From positions 14,396-78,395 of the forward strand of contig WJIS01000022.1 in assembly GCA_014730165.1 (NCBI GenBank): DNA of 64,000 nucleotides, given 5' to 3'. Within the stretch, counting starts at the first letter, position 1; each line of letters starts with the position of its first letter. Of the stretch, positions 7,496 to 29,146 are shown in pieces. The translations under genes and the position numbers were made by a program. The DNA is from Promethearchaeota archaeon. GTDB lineage: Archaea > Asgardarchaeota > Lokiarchaeia > Sigyniarchaeales > SOKP01. The notes under the pieces were generated by a model. That model was given only the letters and a program-made list of their open reading frames with translations. It was not told the origin of the DNA and ran no database searches.

Positions 7496-9847
7496 TTAGT
7501 TTTCTTGGTTGATCACATGTATCTTGAGTTTTAATTTATGAGCAAATTCTGAAAAAGTTTTGAATTCTTTTGACGTGATTACCTGTTTTTTATCTAATCC
7601 AATAATTTTGATAATCCTTTTACCATAAAAGGTTTCTAAGACTTCGGAAATATCATAGGAATTACCTTTCTTTTTTATAAACGAGGACTCAAATTCGGTT
7701 TTTCTTATTTTCAAGATTCTAGGAATATATTTACTAAATGAGGTATGTTTCATTTTTTTTAAATTAAAGACATAAGTACTTCCAACTTCATTATGATCTA
7801 ATAATTCTTGAATAAAATTGTTTATAAGGTTGGGAAAAATTTCTTTGAACTCCTTTAATTTTATATTCTCATTAAGCAAGGGTTTAATAATCTCATAATA
7901 AGGAAGGTTTAAACCCCTTAAATCGTATGATAAATTTAATAAAATCAATAAAGCATCTATTTTTCCCTTGGGATTTTTCTTAATCTGATTAAAAACATAC
8001 GATTTTTCTTGATTTATAAAATTAAATAAGAATTTATTAAATTCATCAACAAACTTATCGTAATGGGGTATAAACTGTCGGTTTGCATTATTAGCTGCTA
8101 GATCACTTGCTTCAAAAGGATCAAGCTCTTTATTTTTTACAGATTCAACTAAAGATAATGGATAGTAGCCTTCAATATAATCCATACCCTCTGAAATTTT
8201 CCTTATAACATCCTTAAAAGAAGATTTTGTAATTGTGTTTACCGTTTTTATGATATTTGTTTCTATCCTTACTGGAGTCTTAAGACAAAAGCAAAGGTCG
8301 AAAGGTTTTAAATCATGGAAAAGAGAATTGTTTTGATCTGGGATTATTAGCTGGGATCCATAAGCATTAACAATACTGCCTTTTATAGGTTTGCTTGCTA
8401 AATCCCATTCGATGATTTGAACTTTATCAATGGAATAGTTTTTATTGATTTCATAGGAATAGTCCATACTCTTTGTAAGAAGGGATATACTATCTCTTAT
8501 CTCCACTTTATGGTCTTCTTCACCCCAAAATTGCTTTTTATAATAGAAAATATCAGGGAATTTCGTAAAATCATCAAGAAATAATTCACGCATAATAAAA
8601 TAGTTAATCCCTATCTCCGAAGATTTAATTGTGGAATCTTTCATACCATAAAATCCAATCTTCCTAATAATATAGTGATAAACGGGATTTTTAAGATTCT
8701 CTCGATCATGATTCACAATATATGTGTTTCTTTTCTTTTTGAAATCGATTTTGGATTTTTTCAAATTATATTTTTTCATTAAAAATAGGAGATACGCAAA
8801 TTTCTTTAAATAAACTTTTTTTTCTAATTCCTTAAATTCTCGTTTATACTTTTTATAATCGGGAAGATATCGTTCTGGGGATATACCAATTGTCTCAAAT
8901 TGTTCTTTCATTAGGTTTAATTTTTCTAAAACACAGAAGTTATCTATTTCTTTTATAAAATACTCCAAAAGTTCCTTTTTTAATTCTTCAATGAAATTTT
9001 CATTAAATAATCCTTGATATCTGGAATTTATTTTTATCAGATCATTTTTATATTTACTTAGGAAAAAAAGTGAAAAATAGCGCTCGTTAAAATCTGTGGA
9101 ATGCAACAGTTCAGAAAAATCAGATAATAGTAAAGATAAAAAATTCGTTTCCTCATGAGTGAATATTTTTTCTACTGAATTGATGATTCTAAGTAGATTA
9201 AAGAATGAATATTTCGAAATATTGTTCATGAATCGCTGAAAACCATTTTGAATTAAATCCATATACTTTTCTAAATACCTTCCTAGCTCTTTTTCATAAA
9301 CATCAAGAATAAATTCAAAGAATTCAATAAATAGGTTCTTTTCAATAGATATTCTTAAATAATTTGCTATTATCTCATCAGATTTCAAATTGTCTATTAA
9401 AGCTTTCTGCAAGTAATTTAATCCCTCAATATAATTTCTATCGAGATTAAAATTTTTATCAGCAATTAATCTAAAATTTTCACTCTTTTTGCTTGAACCA
9501 AAGTCTTCGGATGTTAAATGATAGTTTTCAATGTTATTTAGAAGGTTAATAGAAATCTCTTCATCAATGTAAAGAAGGATTTTTATAAAATGCTCACATA
9601 TTTTTTGATTTAATTCTGAATATATCAAGAATGAAGGACAGTCATGAAAAATTTCCATTTTTTCACTATCAATAATTAAGTGAAATTCCCGATCTTCATC
9701 AAAGATAACTGCTCGTATATGAATTGGTTTTTTATGAAATGAAATAATGTTAATCTTGTTATTTGGAAACTCCTGTCCTTTTTTATAAACCCCCTTTCCG
9801 ACGATACTTTTGATAAGATGAGATATTCTGTCTTCTTTCACTTTCAA
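7496..9847 (-). CDS. SWIM-like zinc-finger protein, 783 aa, third gene of the AAA+/VWA operon
   Basis: The N-terminus GKGVYKKGQ...IRAVIFDEDREFHLIIDSEKMEIFHDCPSFLIYSELNQKICEHFIKILLYI fits the SWIM pattern (CxCPx(n)CxH) with the first Cys replaced by His. The remaining ~650 aa are helical with no motif I recognise. The TTG start (9847..9845) overlaps the VWA gene TGA stop as TTGA. Confidence 0.6.
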   Translation of the reverse strand: MKVKEDRISHLIKSIVGKGVYKKGQEFPNNKINIISFHKKPIHIRAVIFDEDREFHLIIDSEKMEIFHDCPSFLIYSELNQKICEHFIKILLYIDEEISINLLNNIENYHLTSEDFGSSKKSENFRLIADKNFNLDRNYIEGLNYLQKALIDNLKSDEIIANYLRISIEKNLFIEFFEFILDVYEKELGRYLEKYMDLIQNGFQRFMNNISKYSFFNLLRIINSVEKIFTHEETNFLSLLLSDFSELLHSTDFNERYFSLFFLSKYKNDLIKINSRYQGLFNENFIEELKKELLEYFIKEIDNFCVLEKLNLMKEQFETIGISPERYLPDYKKYKREFKELEKKVYLKKFAYLLFLMKKYNLKKSKIDFKKKRNTYIVNHDRENLKNPVYHYIIRKIGFYGMKDSTIKSSEIGINYFIMRELFLDDFTKFPDIFYYKKQFWGEEDHKVEIRDSISLLTKSMDYSYEINKNYSIDKVQIIEWDLASKPIKGSIVNAYGSQLIIPDQNNSLFHDLKPFDLCFCLKTPVRIETNIIKTVNTITKSSFKDVIRKISEGMDYIEGYYPLSLVESVKNKELDPFEASDLAANNANRQFIPHYDKFVDEFNKFLFNFINQEKSYVFNQIKKNPKGKIDALLILLNLSYDLRGLNLPYYEIIKPLLNENIKLKEFKEIFPNLINNFIQELLDHNEVGSTYVFNLKKMKHTSFSKYIPRILKIRKTEFESSFIKKKGNSYDISEVLETFYGKRIIKIIGLDKKQVITSKEFKTFSEFAHKLKLKIHVINQEN

Positions 9848-18175: not shown

Positions 18176-18943
18176 TTATTGATCTTGTATTCCAAGTTGT
18201 TCAATCATCACTTTTTTCATCTCTACTTTATTCTTAGGAAGTCCAAACATTTCAGCATATTTATCGGTAGTTGTCAGTTCTGATGTTCTTCCTTTCTTCA
18301 CGGAATCTATTAATTCATTCTCTTCTAAATATTTAACATGTTCATACGCCCCAGTCCCTCTTATTTTAACTAAAGTTGATTTAAGTAGGGGTTGTTTTAG
18401 TGCTATTATCGTAAGTGTGCGTAAATATTTCTCTGCTATTGCACCACCTTTAGCAAATTGGGAAATCTTCTCGGAATAGGCGGATTTTATCTGCATCTGG
18501 TATTTATCTCCGACTTGGATGATTTCTAGAGCGGTAGATCGATTTGTATACATTTCTATTAATTTTACCAATAAACCGCCTACTTCTTTCTTTGAAATAT
18601 CTAATTTTGTTGCTATTTCTTCTATGCTCAAGGCAGATCCTGATGCATATAATGCACCTTCGATCAAATTACGATAAATATCTGTTTTATCTCCTTCAAA
18701 CTCCTCAATTTCCACCTCATGATCCTGTCCAGATTCAAAAAAGCTGTCAGTTATTAGTGATCCATTATTTTTCTCATTCTTATGGTGTTTATCTTTTAAA
18801 AGCTTTTTATCCTCTGATATTTGCTCATTATTCTGTTTTTCAATTTTTTCAGAATTTAGTTCATCTTTCGAATGATCTTTATCGGGATCTTCTAATTCTT
18901 TCTCTTCTTCACTATTTTCTGTAATATTTTCATCACTAGTCAT
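18176..18943 (-). CDS. scpB: Segregation and condensation protein B (ScpB) with ~85-aa acidic N-terminal extension
   Basis: The tandem winged-helix pattern is IEGALYASGSALSIEEIATKL ... ALEIIQVGDKYQMQIK ... LTIIALKQPLLKSTLVKIRGTGAYEHVKYLEENELI. It lies directly downstream of scpA and smc. Confidence 0.8.
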   Translation of the reverse strand: MTSDENITENSEEEKELEDPDKDHSKDELNSEKIEKQNNEQISEDKKLLKDKHHKNEKNNGSLITDSFFESGQDHEVEIEEFEGDKTDIYRNLIEGALYASGSALSIEEIATKLDISKKEVGGLLVKLIEMYTNRSTALEIIQVGDKYQMQIKSAYSEKISQFAKGGAIAEKYLRTLTIIALKQPLLKSTLVKIRGTGAYEHVKYLEENELIDSVKKGRTSELTTTDKYAEMFGLPKNKVEMKKVMIEQLGIQDQ

Positions 18944-18966: not shown

Positions 18967-19965
18967 TTATCGATTTAAATCTATTTTTATATCCTTAAAT
19001 TCTTTTTCTTGGCTTAGATCTATTTTATTGTTTGTACTCAAGAACATTAGGGCTAGAAAAAGTCTAATCAACTCATATTTTCTTCCCAATCCTGATTCTT
19101 CCTCCGATTTGATCAAATCTGTGAGGTTAAAGAAACTAGTAGAGGAAAAATCATTAAAATTAATTTGAGCTCTTATTTTATTAAACCAACTTTCGAGTAA
19201 TTCATCAATGGATTCTTCTTTTCCTGTTATATGTTTTAGTAATTCTTTTGGTAATTTTGCCTCAGATTTCTTTTTTTTGCGTTGTTTTAATTTCTCTTCT
19301 CGTTTTAGTCTCCTTCTTTTTAGTTTCTCCTTTTTTTGCATTGTTTCTATGATAGCAGAGCGCATCGCGTCGAATAATTCATCCTTTGAAGTCATCTTTA
19401 GTTGCGGTTGTATTGGTTGAGTCATCGTTTTAGGAATTTTTCTTCGAGTCCGCTCTCTCATCTTTTCAAGTTCTTCTTCTTTTTGAATTTTTTCCTCTTC
19501 TTTTATAACGCTTGTAATTTTATGTCGATGTAAAGATGCCGAAGTCTTCAAAGCAATTCCAGAAACCTTATAATTAATAAAATCTTCATGGAGCATTTTA
19601 TTAAAAAATTTATCAACTAGTTCTGATAAGTCATAAAATGCTATATCAGAATCTTTTGCTAGATCAAGGTTTAGTAGCGTTGAATATGGTGGTTTTTGCC
19701 AAAATTTTAGCTCTTTTTTTCGAAATAACGGACTTTCTTTATCATCCTCATCATCAAATCCAGCAACAACTTCTTCTTCTAAGTTTTCCTCTTTTGTGCG
19801 ATCAACAAAATCAGGATGAGATACTACATCTTCTAATAAATTGATAATATCTTTCTTTCTGGACCCAGAAGGAATTGAAATGTTATTGATTGCAGCAAAA
19901 TCCCTTAATTCCTTAACCGTTAATTCCTTAAAGTTATATTCTGAAGAGAGTTCTTTTTCTTTCAT
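18967..19965 (-). CDS. scpA: Segregation and condensation protein A (ScpA kleisin) with N-terminal SAP/HeH-like motif
   Basis: The kleisin N-domain pattern is LDLAKDSDIAFYDLSELVDKFFNKMLHEDFINYKVSGIALKTSASLHRHK. A winged-helix-like C-terminus is present. The N-terminal LTVKELRDFAAINNISIPSGSRKKDIINLLEDVV resembles a SAP motif. Confidence 0.8.
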   Translation of the reverse strand: MKEKELSSEYNFKELTVKELRDFAAINNISIPSGSRKKDIINLLEDVVSHPDFVDRTKEENLEEEVVAGFDDEDDKESPLFRKKELKFWQKPPYSTLLNLDLAKDSDIAFYDLSELVDKFFNKMLHEDFINYKVSGIALKTSASLHRHKITSVIKEEEKIQKEEELEKMRERTRRKIPKTMTQPIQPQLKMTSKDELFDAMRSAIIETMQKKEKLKRRRLKREEKLKQRKKKKSEAKLPKELLKHITGKEESIDELLESWFNKIRAQINFNDFSSTSFFNLTDLIKSEEESGLGRKYELIRLFLALMFLSTNNKIDLSQEKEFKDIKIDLNR

Positions 19966-19987: not shown

Positions 19988-22900
19988 TTAGGGTTGTGTT
20001 GGAACTTCTTCCATATCTAGAAGACGTTTTGCTTCCTCTTCTAAATCTACACTGAAAATATCTGTGATTCCACTTTGTTGCATAGATACCCCATAAATAC
20101 GATTTGAATTTACGATATTTTCTTCACGATGACTTATTACAAGAAATTGTGCTTGGCTTGAAAATTCCTTTATTACTTGGGAAACTCTGGCCACATTTAC
20201 GGAGTCAAGAGCTGCATCTATTTCGTCCATTACGTAAAAAGGCGCGGGGTAAAATTCCTGTACGGCAAAGATGAATGAGAGCGCCACCAACGTTTTTTCC
20301 CCTCCACTTAAGATTTCCAACGAGGAGATCTTTTTTCCTCGTGGTCGCGCTTCGATACTGATACCACCCTCAAAAGGTTTATCTGGACGATCTAGAATCA
20401 TTTTAGCGGACCCTCCCGGTGATAATTTCTGAAAGATTTTCGAGAATTCCCTATTGATTTCATGATACGCTTTCATAAAGGTTTTAGTTTTCTCGAGTTC
20501 AATTTTTTCTATCGCATCCAGGATTGATTTTCTCTCTCTTTGTATGGTTTGCCGTCGCATATCAATTTCATCAAATCGTTCTTTTACTGTATCATATTGT
20601 TCTATAGCTTTTAGGTTTACAGGTTCTAAAGCCTTTTTTTTATTCGTAGCTTTTGTGATGTCTGATTCTAATCCTTTTTCTGTCCAATCTTTACTAATCC
20701 TTGGTATTGAGCCAAAGTCCTTTGATCTTTGATATAAAGTTTCGATTTGATCATTAGTAATGATTTTCTTGGATTCGAAATTATTTAATTTGGATTTTTG
20801 CATTGATAAATCTGATTTTAAATCGCTAATCGATTCTTGATGCTTTTTTTGTTTCTGCCATGATTCTTCCTTTTCTTGTACAACTTTATCCAGTTCTTTT
20901 TGTTTTTCTTCTTTCTTTTTATTCTTTTCAGAGAGATCTTTTTCTACCTTCTCTATTTCTGATTCTAATTCTTCTATTTTGGAATTAGTCTGCTGAAGTT
21001 CTTCCGTAATGGATATTATCTTTTGTTCTCTTTCTTTGTTCTTTTTAAGTTCATTAAGATCTGCTTGAGCTTTATGTAATTCCTTATTTAACTTATTTAG
21101 GTTAGTTTGAGCTTCTTTTTGCGCGTTTAATTCTTTCGACTTATCTTCTTTAAGCGAATCAATTTGGTTTTGTGTCTTGTTTACTTCTTCTTGAAGATCA
21201 GCTACTTTTTTGTTTAATTCCTCAATTTGCTGTTTATTTTCTCCAATTTTTTTTTCTGATTCTATACTTTCATTTTTTAAGTCTTCAATAGAGTTAATGA
21301 TCCTCATAATATTCTCTAAAGATCTTAATTTGTCAAGTATTTTTTCTAATTCCTCGTTCTTCTTCTCTATATCAGATTGTAATTTTTCATTTATCTCCCA
21401 GAAACTATCTTTCTTGGAAGATAGAACTTCAATTTCATCTCGGACGGAATTTCTTTCATTTTCTAATGATTCTATTTTATTATTTATATTTGAAATCAAT
21501 TGTTTTTTTTCTTGAATGTTACTTTCTAAATTTTTAACCTTTCCATTTATATCTTCTATATTTTCAATTAAATTTTGAATTCCTTGGAGATCTTGTAGTT
21601 TGTCTTGAATTTCCTCTAATTCTTTCTGCTTCTCATCAATCTTTTCTTGCAAATCAGAAATCTTTACCCAATAATCTTCTTTATTCGTTTTTAATTCTTC
21701 AATAGTTTTATCTAATTCAATTTTCTTAAATGATTGTTTTTCAATTGAATCATTCCGTTCCTTGATTTCTTCTTCAGATTCTTCGACCTTGTTATTTAAA
21801 TCAGTAATCTTTTGATTAAGATCCTCAAGATTGTGAGTTGAATTCTTTAAATCTCGGGAATCATGATTTTTTTGAATGGTCAATTCAGAGATTCTTTTCT
21901 CAATTTTATTTAATTCACTGGTTTGTTTAGAGATATTTTGAGAGATATCTTCCAGTAGCTTATACAAATCTTGGCTTTTTGACATAGTTAATTTTCTTAA
22001 GGAAAGATGAACATTTTCAAGTATTTCCATTAAATCTTGTACAAAATTATCAAAATTGTTTGTAGAATCTTGAACAGCAACATCAACAGAGTCCTTTGCT
22101 CTATAAATAAGCTGGTCTATTGTTTCATCTGCATTATCAATAAAAAGAGATAAAGTTTGTACAATTGAATCTAATTCATTAACCATTTCATCCGATTCAC
22201 TCGATTCCTCAGTATTACAGGATGCTTCCTCCATCGTTTTCATAATATCTACTATATCTAAAATAAACTTTCTAAACTCCTCAGCAGACATATCTATTGC
22301 CTCGGAATTAGATTGTTGAATGTTTCCTTTTATTGATTCTACTGAAATATTTATATTTTGTGTGAGCATATTTAATATTTGAAGAATTCCATTGATATCA
22401 GATTTTTCTTGTTCATACTCCTTTTCTGCCAGTTGGATTTTATTCTCCATTCTTTTTTTTTCTGCTTTTGATTCCTCAATCCTTCTAATTACATTTTCTT
22501 TGCGATCTTCTAAGCTATTTAACTCATCTTCGAATGAGGAGATATTTTCATTCAAATCAGAGATTTGAAGCTCCGTTTTTTTCTTATTACGTTCCAGATA
22601 TTTTAAATCTTTTTTGTAAAGAGATAATTTTATTTCAATGTTAGAGATTTTAGAACTATTATCATTAATATCTGAATCAACTGCATCTTTCTTCATTTTA
22701 ACTAATTCTAATTCTTTCTCATTTTTCTTAAACTCATAATCTTTATTTTTTGATGTTTTTCTTAATTCTTCTAGTTCATTAGATAGTTGTTTTTTTTCAT
22801 TTACCAGCTTCTTAACTGCGGTCTCAATATCCTTTCCTTGACTTAATTCATTAATTCTTTTTTTCAAGTTTGATCGTTTTTCGGATAGTTCTTCGATTGA

Positions 22901-24460
22901 ATCCTTATTTAATTTTATCTCAGTAGTTAATGAAGAGAGTGTAGAATTGTTTTCAGAAATTTGAGATATCAAATTATTTTTCTCATTTTGTTTTTGACTG
23001 ATCTGTTCTTCAATAGAAATTCTTTTTTCATTCTCATTTGAGAGACGTGTTTTTAATTTTTCAATCTCCGCTCTTTTTTCATTTTCTTCTTGTTCTACTT
23101 TTTTAATAGCTTCTTCTATAGAATCGGATTTTCCTTGTAATTCATTTAATTCTTGTTCTAATTGTTCTCTTTTTTGAGAATTTTTTTCGATTGTCTCTTT
23201 AAGAAGATTTACTTTTGTTTCTAGAGAGGAAATTTGTTGCTTCAATTCAGAAATATCTGCTTTTATTTCAGATTTTTCGTTCTCAATTAAGGAAATTTGT
23301 TTTTCTATCTCAGTCTGAGCTTCTTGCCTTTTTTCTATTTCTTGTTTGGCAGTTTCAATTTTAGATTCGATTTCACTGATGCTTTCTTCTTGAGTAGTGA
23401 TTTTCTTCTCAAATGTTTCTCCTTCCTCAAGTTCCATTTGAAGTTCTTCAAGTTTAATTTTTTCTTGAGTTAATTTTTTTACTGATTTTTTAGCATGTTT
23501 AAGACTTGTTTGATTTGATGACAATTCTGTCTTTAGTTTTGTTATGGTTTCGTTAATTTCCTCTTTCTCTTTCTCTTTTTGAGAGATATTTCTTTCAATA
23601 TTTTCCATTACAACAGATTCTTGATCCAATATTTGTTGTTGTCTTGAAATCTTTTCATCCAATTCTTCTATAATTTTATTAGATTCTTCTATTTTTGATT
23701 CCAGTTCCTCCTCCTCTTTTCTCAATTTGTCGATTTTGAGAGCAATTAGCTTAGCATTTAATTTTTTGATTTGATCTTCTAATTCTTTCCATGCAAGAGC
23801 ATCGTTTTTCTCTCGCTCAACCTTTTTAAGTTGAGAGGATACCTCCTTGAATATCGCTTCAAATTGACTTAGATCGCGTTCCGCTTTTTCTAACTCTTTT
23901 GTAGTTTCCTCTTTCATCTGGTCATATTTTTGGAGACCGATTAACTCTTCAATAAAAATTCTTCTTTCTTCTGTATTCATGTGTGTTAATTCGACAATTT
24001 TACCTTGCAAAACGAATTGATTACTTCCATCAGGATCTATATTTGCTGAAGCTAAGGAATTTAATATTTGTTGTCGCGTAGCTATTTTATCATTCATTTT
24101 ATATTTATTTCCCTTATTTTTTCTCACTACTCTTGTTATTTGGAACTCATCAGTTCCACCAGGGAATATTCCCTCAGAATTGTCAAAATATAGGGTCACT
24201 GATGCTTTTTTTGCTGGATTCTTTCCTTTTGAACCCGCAAATATTAAATCCTCTAATTTCTCAGCTCTCATGGTCTTTTTAGAAAGCCTACCTAAGGCAA
24301 AACATAATGCATCAATTATATTAGACTTACCTGCTCCATTTGGACCTACTATACAAGTAAAACCAGGCGATAGTTTTACTGTAACAGTTCTGTCTCCAAA
24401 TGATTTAAAACCAGTCATGCTAATTCTTTTGATATATGTCAAAATAGATCTCCCAAACAA
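19988..24460 (-). CDS. smc: SMC (structural maintenance of chromosomes) ATPase, 1490 aa, atypical central region
   Basis: N-terminal head: GFKSFGDRTVTVKLSPGFTCIVGPNGAGKSNIIDALCFALG and QGKIVELTHMNTEERRIFIEELIG. C-terminal head: LSGGEKTLVALSFIFAVQEFYPAPFYVMDEIDAALD. The track start is TTG 24460; an alternative TTG at 24442 would give the typical MTYIKRI... N-terminus. Confidence 0.9.
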   Translation of the reverse strand: MFGRSILTYIKRISMTGFKSFGDRTVTVKLSPGFTCIVGPNGAGKSNIIDALCFALGRLSKKTMRAEKLEDLIFAGSKGKNPAKKASVTLYFDNSEGIFPGGTDEFQITRVVRKNKGNKYKMNDKIATRQQILNSLASANIDPDGSNQFVLQGKIVELTHMNTEERRIFIEELIGLQKYDQMKEETTKELEKAERDLSQFEAIFKEVSSQLKKVEREKNDALAWKELEDQIKKLNAKLIALKIDKLRKEEEELESKIEESNKIIEELDEKISRQQQILDQESVVMENIERNISQKEKEKEEINETITKLKTELSSNQTSLKHAKKSVKKLTQEKIKLEELQMELEEGETFEKKITTQEESISEIESKIETAKQEIEKRQEAQTEIEKQISLIENEKSEIKADISELKQQISSLETKVNLLKETIEKNSQKREQLEQELNELQGKSDSIEEAIKKVEQEENEKRAEIEKLKTRLSNENEKRISIEEQISQKQNEKNNLISQISENNSTLSSLTTEIKLNKDSIEELSEKRSNLKKRINELSQGKDIETAVKKLVNEKKQLSNELEELRKTSKNKDYEFKKNEKELELVKMKKDAVDSDINDNSSKISNIEIKLSLYKKDLKYLERNKKKTELQISDLNENISSFEDELNSLEDRKENVIRRIEESKAEKKRMENKIQLAEKEYEQEKSDINGILQILNMLTQNINISVESIKGNIQQSNSEAIDMSAEEFRKFILDIVDIMKTMEEASCNTEESSESDEMVNELDSIVQTLSLFIDNADETIDQLIYRAKDSVDVAVQDSTNNFDNFVQDLMEILENVHLSLRKLTMSKSQDLYKLLEDISQNISKQTSELNKIEKRISELTIQKNHDSRDLKNSTHNLEDLNQKITDLNNKVEESEEEIKERNDSIEKQSFKKIELDKTIEELKTNKEDYWVKISDLQEKIDEKQKELEEIQDKLQDLQGIQNLIENIEDINGKVKNLESNIQEKKQLISNINNKIESLENERNSVRDEIEVLSSKKDSFWEINEKLQSDIEKKNEELEKILDKLRSLENIMRIINSIEDLKNESIESEKKIGENKQQIEELNKKVADLQEEVNKTQNQIDSLKEDKSKELNAQKEAQTNLNKLNKELHKAQADLNELKKNKEREQKIISITEELQQTNSKIEELESEIEKVEKDLSEKNKKKEEKQKELDKVVQEKEESWQKQKKHQESISDLKSDLSMQKSKLNNFESKKIITNDQIETLYQRSKDFGSIPRISKDWTEKGLESDITKATNKKKALEPVNLKAIEQYDTVKERFDEIDMRRQTIQRERKSILDAIEKIELEKTKTFMKAYHEINREFSKIFQKLSPGGSAKMILDRPDKPFEGGISIEARPRGKKISSLEILSGGEKTLVALSFIFAVQEFYPAPFYVMDEIDAALDSVNVARVSQVIKEFSSQAQFLVISHREENIVNSNRIYGVSMQQSGITDIFSVDLEEEAKRLLDMEEVPTQP

Positions 24461-24585: not shown

Positions 24586-25791
24586 TTAATTAAAATTTCC
24601 AAAAATAGCATCCACCATCGCTTTAAGTTTATGTGGATTTATCCCCATAAAAAAAATATTTTTTGCAATTCCCAGATGAGATTTTGATTCATTCAATGCG
24701 TTATTAATTTTTCTTGATTTACTCATTATACCTATATTATTCAGTAAATTAACTAGTTTTTTATACTCTTCAACATTTTTCTCATATTCCAAACTTTCAC
24801 ATGAAACGTCATATATCTCCTTTAATTGTTTCTCAGAAATATAATAATTCAAAGAATTTGAGATGAAATAATTTGTTAAATTGTCTAGAAAAATTAATGT
24901 AAATAAATTTTCTTCAGCAAGATAATTTAAAATATTAAATTCATCATGGGAGGGCATAGAATCTAAGTGGTTATGGGAGATTTCGACTATTTGATCATAA
25001 GATAAATTCTCTAAAGAATTAGTTTGTAGAAAAGGGTAGAGATCTCTTAAAATATATATACCTTTCCCAGGAATTGGTACATAATTCTCAAAAATTAGAT
25101 CTGATATAAATTCAATAAGTCCATTATCAATATGATGTTTAAAACTTAAATTAGCTCTCTGTTTAAGTATTTTAACTAGTTCTTTATATTTAAAATAAGA
25201 CAATTTTCTTTTAAAATCAAATTTTGATAAGAGATCCATAGCTGATCCTCGTAAAACTTTGTTTATTGTTGAAATTATAGAAATTTTTGATTCTTTTCCA
25301 AAAGCTAAAAATTTTTTAAAGACTGTAGGATCTAAATGCTCAGAATTATTTAAAATCAATATTATGTTTTTATCTACCTTTTTAATTGAAAGTTTGAGAA
25401 CACTCCATAATCTCGAAATTTTTGAATTCATAATTAAATTCATATCAAATTGAGGACTGTTAAGACTGAGGATCTTGCTAAGAGCAGATAATAAAATTTC
25501 CTCAATGGTTTTTTCTCTACAATCTAAAGTTATCCTCTTGTATGAATTAAGAGGGTTTCTTCTATTTATCAAATCCTTTAATACTTTATTAACAATTACT
25601 TTTTTGCCAATTCCAGCAATACCTTGATATAAAACATTTATTGAAAAATTATCTGATAATGAATCCCTTAGTATAGAAAATAAAGAAGTTTCTTCCTTTT
25701 TGCGATATAATAATTTTGGGGGAACGTAATTATCATTAAATAATGCTTTAGGACCTACATAATCCGATTGACATTTATTTTTACTTAACAT
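24586..25791 (-). CDS. cdc6: Orc1/Cdc6-family protein with degenerate Walker A/B motifs
   Basis: Family pattern: NYVPPKLLYRKKEETSLFSIL, VLYQGIAGIGKKVIV (GKK instead of GKT/S), ILILNNSEHLD (in place of LDEID), ISIISTINKV, KLSYFKYKELVKILKQRA, PGKGIYILRDL. Confidence 0.7.
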   Translation of the reverse strand: MLSKNKCQSDYVGPKALFNDNYVPPKLLYRKKEETSLFSILRDSLSDNFSINVLYQGIAGIGKKVIVNKVLKDLINRRNPLNSYKRITLDCREKTIEEILLSALSKILSLNSPQFDMNLIMNSKISRLWSVLKLSIKKVDKNIILILNNSEHLDPTVFKKFLAFGKESKISIISTINKVLRGSAMDLLSKFDFKRKLSYFKYKELVKILKQRANLSFKHHIDNGLIEFISDLIFENYVPIPGKGIYILRDLYPFLQTNSLENLSYDQIVEISHNHLDSMPSHDEFNILNYLAEENLFTLIFLDNLTNYFISNSLNYYISEKQLKEIYDVSCESLEYEKNVEEYKKLVNLLNNIGIMSKSRKINNALNESKSHLGIAKNIFFMGINPHKLKAMVDAIFGNFN

Positions 25792-27790: not shown

Positions 27791-29146
27791 ATGATAGAAA
27801 TGAAGAATAAATTTTTGAATATCTCACTTTCCTATTTTCATCGAAAAATAGGACCTATGATCTTCTATTCTTATCCAGAGGATATGCTAGACGATAAATT
27901 ATCTTCGAGAATAGCAAATATTATGGATCAGCAGTTTAACGAAGGTTTTTTTACTCACACTTTTGAAGATATCATAACAATGAATTATTATTTTGAAGTT
28001 CAATCCGATTGGGCACGTGGTAACAACGATATGCTAATGATATCAATTATTTTCAATGAGCAAACAGATACGAAAATTGAAGAGGAAATTCAAAATTTGT
28101 GTATTGAGTTTTCTGAAAAACTTAAATCTAATGAAGAAATATATACAGCATTCTATATCAGCGATATTAGTCATTTTAATAATGAAGAACAAGAAAGCAT
28201 AATTAAGAATAATGAGAGGGTTAAGCTTTGGGTCAGAGAATTATACTGGGCTGCAATAGATGCTACAAGGGAAAAAACAGAAGAAGAAAGATTAGCAAAT
28301 CTCCTAAACAAGAAATATATTTTTCTTACTTTAAGGAAATTATCAAAAGGTCCATTACCATTAGAATGGTTGAGTGAATGGTTTTTTGAGAATTTCCCAG
28401 ACAAAGATTTCACAAGTATTATAGAAACGCTAGTTGAACGCCAACTTATATTTATTAATCAAATAGGGATTGTTGAAAAATATGTTCTATTATTAAAAGA
28501 AGTGAATGCTGAGAGAATACCACCTGATAGTGTAATTGAATATATTGATGAAACTCCCGAACTAATAGATTTAATTCTTCCTAAAGTACAAAAATATTTT
28601 AGTAAATATGAAACTAAAACTGATGAAGAATTAGAAGAGGATTCCTTTCTTTTATTCCAGATTATAGCAGATCCTAAAAAATATAATGTTCTTTCTGAAT
28701 TGCGAAATGGCTTGATTCCGAGAGATAAACTTCCAAAGTTGATTTCAAAAAGAAATTTAGATGCTTTAAGTAGAGTCTTAGAATTTCTCAAGAAGTATGA
28801 CATAATTGAAGAATTGAAATTTAAAAATGAACGATATGTAGTTTTAAAAACTAATCTACAGATAACAACCGCTTTCCCAGAATATCTTAGAAAATTATTA
28901 CCAGAGGAATCAAAACCAGTTATAGCAGACAAGTCTACCGCTGTAGAAGAGGAAAAGGAGAAGCAAGAAGAGATTGCAGAAATCTTATATGATTTGAGAA
29001 AAAAAGGATTAAAAAAATCTAAAGAAGAAAAAATATATAATTTTTTAGAAAATACATCTTCGAAATCAAATAATGATTCTCAAGAAGAAAAGAATAATTC
29101 CTTCAACGAAACTAATGTAGATGATTTTAATAAAGAAATTGACTAA
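27791..29146 (+). CDS. Hypothetical protein: N-terminal NPRL2-like longin domain, two winged-helix-like modules, acidic/Lys-rich tail
   Basis: 451 aa. SLSYFHRKIGPMIFYSYPEDML resembles the remembered NPRL2 N-terminus (F-H-x3-GP-x-I-x-Y-x2-PED). NDMLMISIIFN resembles the NPRL2 ALLFNLGF strand. WH-like segments are LTLRKLSKGPLPLEWL...LVERQLIFINQIGIVEKYVLL and YNVLSELRNGLIPRDKL...LKKYDIIEELKFKNERYVVL. Confidence 0.4.
   Translation: MIEMKNKFLNISLSYFHRKIGPMIFYSYPEDMLDDKLSSRIANIMDQQFNEGFFTHTFEDIITMNYYFEVQSDWARGNNDMLMISIIFNEQTDTKIEEEIQNLCIEFSEKLKSNEEIYTAFYISDISHFNNEEQESIIKNNERVKLWVRELYWAAIDATREKTEEERLANLLNKKYIFLTLRKLSKGPLPLEWLSEWFFENFPDKDFTSIIETLVERQLIFINQIGIVEKYVLLLKEVNAERIPPDSVIEYIDETPELIDLILPKVQKYFSKYETKTDEELEEDSFLLFQIIADPKKYNVLSELRNGLIPRDKLPKLISKRNLDALSRVLEFLKKYDIIEELKFKNERYVVLKTNLQITTAFPEYLRKLLPEESKPVIADKSTAVEEEKEKQEEIAEILYDLRKKGLKKSKEEKIYNFLENTSSKSNNDSQEEKNNSFNETNVDDFNKEID

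Follow-up and report, generated by a model that had tools for sequence, protein, structure and literature searches.

A condensin-type SMC without a hinge, with a duplicated helical apex and repeat-containing arms, in a Promethearchaeota archaeon

A 64,000-nucleotide stretch of contig WJIS01000022.1 (positions 14,396 to 78,395, forward strand) from a Promethearchaeota archaeon (assembly GCA_014730165.1), here called the window, carries three adjacent genes on its reverse strand: smc (19988..24460), followed by a kleisin gene (18967..19965) and scpB (18176..18943). The smc gene, identified from the list of open reading frames (ORFs), Pfam SMC_N, TIGR02168, and matches to SMC heads in the PDB, encodes a protein of 1490 amino acids (aa). 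The ScpA-like kleisin (332 aa) was recognized by Pfam SMC_ScpA (PF02616; 27.1 bits against a cutoff of 24.6), and ScpB, the kite subunit (255 aa), by SMC_ScpB (PF04079; 111 bits) and TIGR00281 (99 bits against a cutoff of 89). At the gene level, the kleisin and kite partners that characterize an SMC are therefore present, on the same strand and in the order that an earlier, sequence-only reading of this DNA had described. What the 1490-aa SMC lacks is the dimerizing globular hinge (PF06470), a defining feature of these proteins, and because this feature was looked for and is absent, the protein should not be filed as a standard family member without qualification.

The ATPase head is canonical, as the sequence-only reading had it. 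The N-terminal half (residues 1-188; 23897..24460, reverse strand) contains Walker A (GPNGAGKSN, residues 39-47) and the Q-loop (LQG, 151-153), and residues 8-188 are matched by the Pyrococcus furiosus SMC N-head 1xew_X in a PDB sequence search. Conservation across this half is 0.84-0.98 in an alignment of the query with 120 homologues. The C-terminal half (residues 1321-1490; 19991..20500, reverse strand) contains the signature (LSGGEKT, 1384-1390), Walker B, and the H-loop, and is matched over residues 1321-1481 by the P. furiosus C-head chains 1xew_Y and 3kta_B; its Walker B stretch, FYVMDEIDAALD (1408-1419), includes YVMDEIDAALD. The top PDB matches are Pyrococcus and Bacillus SMC heads, with E-values from 1.6e-118 (5xei) to 5e-67. 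The listed TTG start (24419-24460, reverse strand; residues 1-14) puts about 7-14 residues before the usual SMC N-terminus (..YIKRISMTGFKSFG). Since homologues begin aligning at residues 3-7, and 31% of them are gapped within the first 30 alignment columns, the exact start codon is uncertain by a few codons.

Pfam SMC_N scores 115 bits, while the two curated whole-protein models disagree: TIGR02168 scores 643.3 bits, which passes its cutoff of 567.35. TIGR02169, the archaeal type, reaches 651.4 bits and stays below its cutoff of 729.4, a shortfall that is consistent with the missing hinge. The same shortfall could be read as a sign that the protein is another SMC-superfamily ATPase that naturally has no hinge: Rad50/SbcC, one of the archaea-specific SMC-related proteins (ASRP: ClsN, Sph, Arcadin-4), or a RecN-like protein. 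Rad50 and RecN-like proteins typically combine a helical tip with the lack of a hinge, and weak NCBIfam matches to ASRP (156 bits) and to Rad50 models (67-107 bits) were obtained. We consider this very improbable. The Rad50 models fail on this protein (48-107 bits against cutoffs of 700-1087), as do ASRP (155.6 bits against 300; NCBIfam NF045487 / NF053563 test) and Arcadin-4 (39.9 bits against 860), whereas the SMC models score about 4-6 times as high as ASRP or Rad50 and one of them, TIGR02168, passes. The heads are nearest to solved SMC heads, which match over a range of E-values from 1e-118 to 1e-44, while Rad50 chains in the PDB match at 4e-8 or weaker. There is no CxxC motif, and only 3 Cys, in the whole protein, in agreement with the earlier statement that a zinc hook is missing. 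The neighbours are a kleisin and ScpB rather than Mre11; no Mre11-like neighbour was found among the window ORFs, and no second SMC-like gene was found within the 64 kb. The protein clearly descends from SMC, and the earlier identification as the condensin SMC is supported by SMC_N, by TIGR02168 above cutoff, and by the kleisin and ScpB neighbours.

As controls, the same tools were applied to the canonical SMCs of Natronorubrum bangense (1194 aa) and Listeria monocytogenes (1186 aa). The protein is about 300 aa longer than either, as the sequence-only reading had estimated against typical prokaryotic SMCs. In a BLASTP comparison with the haloarchaeal (Natronorubrum) SMC, residues 9-503 align with 2-488 and residues 989-1488 with 695-1192, such that residues 504-988 occupy the place of canonical residues 489-694, which contain the hinge.

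The segment that the sequence-only reading singled out, 21900-22400, corresponds to residues 687-854. No hinge was found there in any of four ways (Pfam, PDB profile, Foldseek, and hhalign), so that the divergent hinge that a hidden Markov model or structure search might have brought to light did not appear. SMC_hinge (PF06470) was not found on the protein in a Pfam scan even at E<=1, while the same scan gave 108 bits on the Natronorubrum control and 113 bits on the Listeria control. When 20 diverse homologues were used to build a profile of the centre, its only PDB matches were sub-threshold ones to de novo designed helical bundles, none of them a hinge, and no Pfam family passed its cutoff; the sub-threshold Pfam matches were to generic helical-bundle families only. 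In hhalign, the central region compared with two canonical hinges gave a probability of 0.04%. The composition of the region is equally unlike a hinge, and its scarcity of glycine was described correctly from the letters. Of the 152 residues in 687-838, 2 are Gly (1.3%) and none is Pro, where the canonical hinge regions of the controls have 15-25 Gly (8-13%) and 5-7 Pro, and the segment lies within a Pro-free run of 1109 residues (144-1252).

Some SMC-like proteins, MukB and Smc5/6 among them, have poorly conserved hinges, and the centre might on that ground be a true hinge fold so divergent that sequence methods miss it. We regard this as extremely improbable, given the glycine and proline counts, the hhalign result, the absence of any hinge chain from the PDB and Foldseek matches, and a predicted structure with no strands. 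For this structure, AlphaFold2 (AF2) was run on residues 600-930 as a single chain with a 25-sequence alignment. It returned two unbroken helices, 601-749 (149 residues) and 756-929 (174 residues), joined as a hairpin by a 6-residue loop (750-755), with a mean pLDDT, the predicted score of the local distance difference test, of 85 and values of about 95 in the arms. The model and the Pro-free run show the long antiparallel coiled-coil arm expected of an SMC. In a Foldseek search of the PDB, the model was closest to 2ch7, a cytoplasmic hairpin of a chemoreceptor (E 6.6e-4); the MukB elbow came next, then arm fragments of SMC, Rad50, and Smc5/6, and no hinge chain is among the matches. The chemoreceptor family itself is not detected in the sequence (Pfam MCPsignal on the apex: E 0.87, 9.8 bits against a cutoff of 34.6). 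The sequence-only reading had pictured a helical bundle at the centre. The all-helical part of this picture stands, but the model gives the tip of a continuous hairpin rather than a separate globular bundle, and a bundle would form only if two tips associate.

We refer to this tip as the apex (residues 686-838; 21947..22405, reverse strand), a region delimited by the lack of a hinge match, the AF2 hairpin, an internal duplication, and conservation. It consists of unit A (686-744), a variable acidic loop (approximately 745-759), unit B (760-818), and a conserved continuation to about residue 840. Units A and B align without gaps (hhalign probability 98.3%, E 2e-14), and the apex is therefore a tandem duplicate of a helix of about 59 aa folded into a hairpin. 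No homologous known domain was found for it in Pfam and PDB profile searches. When the query is aligned with 120 homologues, conservation reaches 94-96% in blocks 691-720 and 811-840, equal to the Walker and signature regions; in the arms it is 54-79%, and residues 751-780, around the loop, vary and contain gaps. The apex is under strong purifying selection. Its composition also sets it apart from the arms: residues 687-838 are 37-39% hydrophobic and 22-29% charged, with 6-7% Lys plus Arg and a net acidic character, while the arms are 23-28% hydrophobic and 42-49% charged. Across 25 diverse sequences, there are 2.4-2.6 conserved hydrophobic positions per heptad in the apex, compared with 1.45-1.7 in the flanking arms, and doublet patterns such as IL.IL.ML, FIL.IV.IM, and LM.IL broaden the hydrophobic face.

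The arms that lead to the apex are built in part from repeats. Self-BLASTP of the SMC returned the identity match only, and the repeats were judged by an ungapped diagonal scan with shuffles, by hmmsearch with family profiles and a reversed-sequence decoy, and by Smith-Waterman z-scores. Family profiles and Smith-Waterman alignment delimit tandem modules N1 (286-382), N2 (383-480), N3 (481-577), and a weak N4 (578-672) in the N arm (22445..23605, reverse strand), and C1 (842-930, weak), C2 (931-1020), C3 (1021-1110), and C4 (1111-1200, weak) in the C arm (20861..21937, reverse strand). The diagonal scan picked up self-similarity within both arms that none of the shuffles reached, with an offset of 97-98 for the N arm and of 90 for the C arm. 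With the family profiles, the N1, N2, and N3 copies lie end-to-end in register at 14-30 bits, and C2 and C3 are in register at 32 bits, with C1 at 11 bits and C4 at 5.6 bits. No copy of N4 rose above the level of the reversed-sequence decoy, the sole N3-N4 profile match being 7.1 bits; the decoy itself gave about 7 bits or less apart from one match of 15.7 bits. In Smith-Waterman comparisons with shuffles, N2 and N3 share 39/94 identical residues (z = 12.6), and C2 and C3 share 32/87 (z = 10.5). The z-scores for the further pairs within arms are 6.8 (N1-N2), 6.7 (N1-N3), 6.7 (N2-N4), 6.1 (C1-C2), and 7.1 (C1-C4), and no pair of an N with a C module exceeds 4.3. Since the repeat profiles also score 8-15 bits at scattered sites on the Natronorubrum and Listeria SMCs, such scores are taken as coiled-coil background; N4, C1, and C4 are therefore tentative, and the number of modules in canonical arms cannot be read from these profiles.

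The self-similar blocks that the sequence-only reading had noticed in the C-terminal arm are thus C2 and C3. Its reading of an internal duplication holds for the C arm but has to be extended, as the N arm is repeated too (383-480 versus 481-577) and the apex is itself a duplication. From the head boundaries given by the PDB matches (188 and 1321), the head-to-tip distance is 561 residues on the N strand (189-749) and 565 on the C strand (756-1320), approximately 563 each, and the two strands are matched in length. With the turn modelled at 750-755, residue x of the N strand would face roughly residue 1505-x, an arrangement that would set N3 opposite C2, N2 opposite C3, N1 opposite C4, and N4 opposite C1.

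The comparison with orthologs of related archaea that had been proposed earlier shows that this architecture is widespread. The comparison set comprised this clade and the two controls. At least 120 best database matches, at 59-66% identity, are all 1469-1487 aa long, and PF06470 is found in none of them; the named ones are labelled Lokiarchaeota or Promethearchaeota, and occasionally as another Asgard phylum. Scanning one genome per GTDB species gave at least 80 loci with identities of 38-66%; among them are a closed 2.27-Mb chromosome, a 4.36-Mb contig, and Candidatus Harpocratesius repetitus. Promethearchaeota is the label of nearly all of these clusters and genomes. When the apex by itself was searched exhaustively with phmmer through 1.84 billion cluster representatives, only 27 clusters came back, among which the full-length apex-bearing SMCs are 1464-1497 aa long, with one of 1296 aa, and all are hinge-less. 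This shorter protein (MDO8116617.1, Candidatus Sigynarchaeota) has the same apex domain and shorter arms, by about 100 aa on the N side and 88 aa on the C side. It contains two copies of the N module and a single strong copy of the C module, one module of about 95 aa fewer in each arm, and appears to be a natural step variant in arm length. Judged by these sequences, the hinge-less architecture is the conserved state of the whole Promethearchaeota/Sigynarchaeota SMC clade and not the oddity of one gene.

The same conservation bears on the possibility that the gene is mis-assembled, frameshifted, or decaying. The sequence is of metagenome type, AT-rich, and repeat-containing, which would fit an artefact. 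Against this, a single unbroken ORF encodes the protein, more than 120 independent clusters and 80 genomes share its domain order and a length of 1469-1497 aa, and selection on the apex is strong. Conservation effectively refutes an artefact, to which we attach next to no weight. Some database names are at odds with the rest: three records of this archaeal SMC (L042, L075, P0148) are labelled as Nanopelagicaceae, Bacillota, or Chloroflexi metagenome-assembled genomes, and further records about 60% identical to the window SMC are labelled Thor-, Hod-, Hermod-, or Odinarchaeota. These labels probably reflect mis-binned contigs or inconsistent taxonomy, and the names are unfit for inferring distribution.

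The apex domain was also found outside SMCs. Six non-SMC proteins (P0139, P0142, P0143, P0150, P0141, and P0151), which match the window only over 21893-22474, have two tandem copies of it and then a beta-rich stretch and a long tail rich in Lys, without a Pfam match. They are from Promethearchaeota, with one member labelled Heimdallarchaeota, and a homologue search for the family gave 3 proteins. An AF2 model of residues 1-520 of one member (P0142) has four helices of about 120 aa (pLDDT 83.6, predicted template modelling score 0.54), and the packing of the copies is not readable from the Foldseek matches to this model, which have template modelling scores of 0.2-0.3. This family may have given rise to the SMC apex, or may act as its partner.

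We suggest that the protein is probably the SMC of a condensin-type Smc-kleisin-ScpB complex of a Lokiarchaeia-like Asgard archaeon, in a clade in which the hinge has been replaced by an all-helical apex, predicted to dimerize as a four-helix bundle, and in which the arms have been lengthened stepwise. The cytoplasmic signalling domain of chemoreceptors homodimerizes to form a four-helix bundle, and two apex hairpins would similarly pack laterally, the resulting bundle providing the constitutive dimer contact that is normally supplied by the hinge.

Several observations weigh against this interpretation. AF2 models the monomer as a simple hairpin, with the least confidence in the apex (pLDDT 71-80), and the wide hydrophobic face of the apex could equally bind another protein or fold back onto the arm. 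Four modules per arm are firm only for N1-N3 and C2-C3, given the weak scores of N4, C1, and C4 (5-15 bits) and the 15.7-bit decoy match. In the main alternative, the apex is not a dimerizer: each SMC would form a closed hairpin whose tip binds some other factor, either a protein partner or the folded arm, and two SMCs would be joined only by ATP-engaged heads and by the kleisin and ScpB. The self-contained hairpin of the monomer model is in keeping with this idea, as is the presence of the domain, twice, in an unrelated Lys-rich Promethearchaeota family, where it could be a heterotypic interaction module. Hinge-less relatives whose mode of assembly is not known have also been described in marine Actinobacteria (PMC12153180). 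We nevertheless think it rather unlikely that the apex does not dimerize. Both apex helices have about one extra conserved hydrophobic position per heptad, and the paired domain in the two-copy family is the pattern expected of a self-associating helical hairpin. Moreover, all characterized long-armed members of the SMC superfamily that we know of dimerize at the apex, be it through a hinge, a zinc hook, the MukB hinge, or the RecN coiled-coil tip.

In the 80 related loci, many of which end at contig edges, the kleisin gene lies 3´ of smc in 59 and scpB is found in 53. The window kleisin has a SAP/LEM-like module at its N-terminus (residues ~13-47; 19825-19929, reverse strand), detected by HeH (E 0.0019) and Rho_N (E 3e-4), both sub-threshold. 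Most kleisins beside the hinge-less SMCs (L001-L080), the window one included, have such a motif; the Rho_N, HeH, SAP, and Ish1 matches mostly fall short of threshold, and one exceeds its cutoff at 28.8 bits. Other kleisins have a clear N-terminal HhH domain (HHH_5, 53.6 bits; L049), a zinc-finger-like CxxC...H..C motif (L048 and L051), or Lys/Ser/Thr-rich tails (L056, L059, L060, and L067), while in the one haloarchaeal ScpA used as a control, an acidic extension is all that is present. The acidic character of the apex makes DNA binding of the hinge type unlikely there, and the lineage-variable kleisin modules may compensate for the lost DNA binding of the hinge. That this idea is built on mostly sub-threshold Pfam matches and a single haloarchaeal control counts against it.

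Residues 1-90 of the window ScpB form a highly charged (Glu/Asp/Lys-rich) extension of about 90 residues before the winged-helix region, and related loci match the protein only from residue ~60-90 onward. Directly upstream of smc lies a gene for a divergent Orc1/Cdc6-like P-loop protein of 401 aa (24586..25791, reverse strand), a position that it holds in 59 of the 80 related loci. It has weak PDB matches to archaeal ORC2/Cdc6 (1w5s, E 1.6e-4; 2qby, E 2.6e-3) and no Pfam family above cutoff, and is mentioned as context only. The window as a whole is AT-rich (25-38% G+C) and includes the housekeeping genes ValRS, NFACT, and TGT. Four large ORFs of 451-805 aa are without a Pfam match at E<=1e-4 (7496-9847 on the reverse strand, and 27791-29146, 49182-51491, and 51473-53890 on the forward strand).

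The complex most likely works like Smc-ScpAB. In the model that we favor, the ATPase cycle, the bridging by the kleisin, and the binding of ScpB would be as in that system, and the main differences would lie in the rod and its tip. A coiled coil extends by about 0.15 nm per residue, and 563 residues would give a rod of approximately 80 nm instead of approximately 50 nm. The arms would have grown through duplications of a single structural module, matched between the two strands, since mismatched or out-of-phase arms are non-functional (PMC5344682), and this growth would respect the quantization of functional SMC arms in steps of about 91-100 aa. DNA contacts might come from the kleisin N-terminal modules, SAP/LEM-like, HhH, or Lys-rich depending on the lineage. 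A more far-reaching version of this model is possible, and we put it forward tentatively, as something we doubt more than we believe. It is that Lokiarchaeia and Sigynarchaeia possess a rewired condensin, in which a self-associating four-helix-bundle apex was derived from a lineage-specific module that is also paired in a Lys-rich, possibly chromatin-associated family, the arms grew by matched duplications of about 95 aa, and the DNA binding of the hinge moved to interchangeable kleisin modules (SAP/LEM-like, HhH, Cys/His motif, or Lys-rich tail).

The hinge is regarded as a defining and universal part of SMC proteins and has been assigned roles in dimerization, in DNA binding, and in DNA entry or obstacle bypass. 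Here, it is missing from the ScpAB-associated SMC of a whole clade of Asgard archaea, the group presumed to be ancestral to eukaryotic SMC complexes. Alongside the engineered zinc-hook chimera discussed below, the clade provides a natural means of testing which functions of the hinge are indispensable. The arm modules, together with a relative that is one module shorter in each arm, provide direct sequence evidence for length quanta of about 95 aa with the two strands staying matched, and if the rewired-condensin model were true, these proteins would be a natural record of the rule by which SMC arm lengths are quantized. Our data also carry a warning: phylogenomic surveys in which the SMC of Lokiarchaeia stands for the SMC1-4 ancestor rely on a derived and atypical protein. 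In the searchable literature, we found no description of a hinge-less Lokiarchaeota or Asgard SMC. A 2025 preprint reports two SMC complexes in Asgard archaea and describes the smc-kleisin-kite operon of Prometheoarchaeum syntrophicum as 'condensin/cohesin-related', but is silent on the hinge, and the absence of a hinge is not mentioned by Yoshinaga & Inagaki (2021).

Among known systems, the closest is canonical prokaryotic Smc-ScpAB, as in B. subtilis and Pyrococcus, with which the protein shares the head motifs, collinear head-proximal arms, and adjacent kleisin and ScpB genes. It differs in having an acidic helical apex instead of the PF06470 hinge, about 563 aa from head to tip per strand where canonical arms have about 340 aa, and a kleisin with an extra N-terminal SAP/LEM-like module. 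Rad50/SbcC likewise has a long antiparallel coiled coil that ends in a non-globular tip, but this tip is a CxxC zinc hook and the partner is Mre11/SbcD, whereas the SMC described here has no CxxC, is partnered by ScpA and ScpB, and has a variable turn between conserved flanking helices. RecN and MukB are bacterial members of the SMC superfamily that dimerize at the apex without a canonical SMC hinge, RecN via its coiled-coil tip, and have different heads and partners; in PDB searches, neither showed sequence similarity to the present apex. The best structural match, the signalling domain of methyl-accepting chemoreceptors (2ch7), also forms a long hairpin of helices whose tip is conserved, and is an analogue without a sequence relationship.

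A 'hinge-less' SMC clade from marine metagenomes, assigned to Actinobacteria, has been reported (PMC12153180). Its heads are of SMC type, and its antiparallel coiled coil lacks both a hinge and CxxC; in these respects, known from sequence and predicted structure only, it resembles the present proteins, with which we compare it by description only. It belongs to another domain of life, and no apex domain, arm repeats, or scpAB context were described for it.

An engineered protein offers a directly relevant comparison. The hinge of B. subtilis Smc can be replaced by the zinc hook of P. furiosus Rad50 with normal growth (Burmann et al. 2017, PMC5344682), and the hinge fold is therefore dispensable if the apex dimerizes and the arm length fits a period of about 91 aa. 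Engineered arms are functional only at lengths on this 91-aa period, and natural SMC arm lengths are multimodal, with modes at 238, 341, and 515 aa, minor modes at 163 and 423 aa, and steps of about 100 aa (PMC5344682). Like the engineered Smc(Zh), the archaeal protein combines SMC heads and arms with a structurally unrelated apex; unlike it, the protein is natural and conserved, has no Cys or zinc site at its apex, and would dimerize there through helices. Its modules of 90-97 aa match both the 91-aa period and the steps of about 100 aa, and the distance along the arm to the start of the apex, about 490 aa here and about 400 aa in the Sigynarchaeota variant, fits the same picture (PMC5344682).

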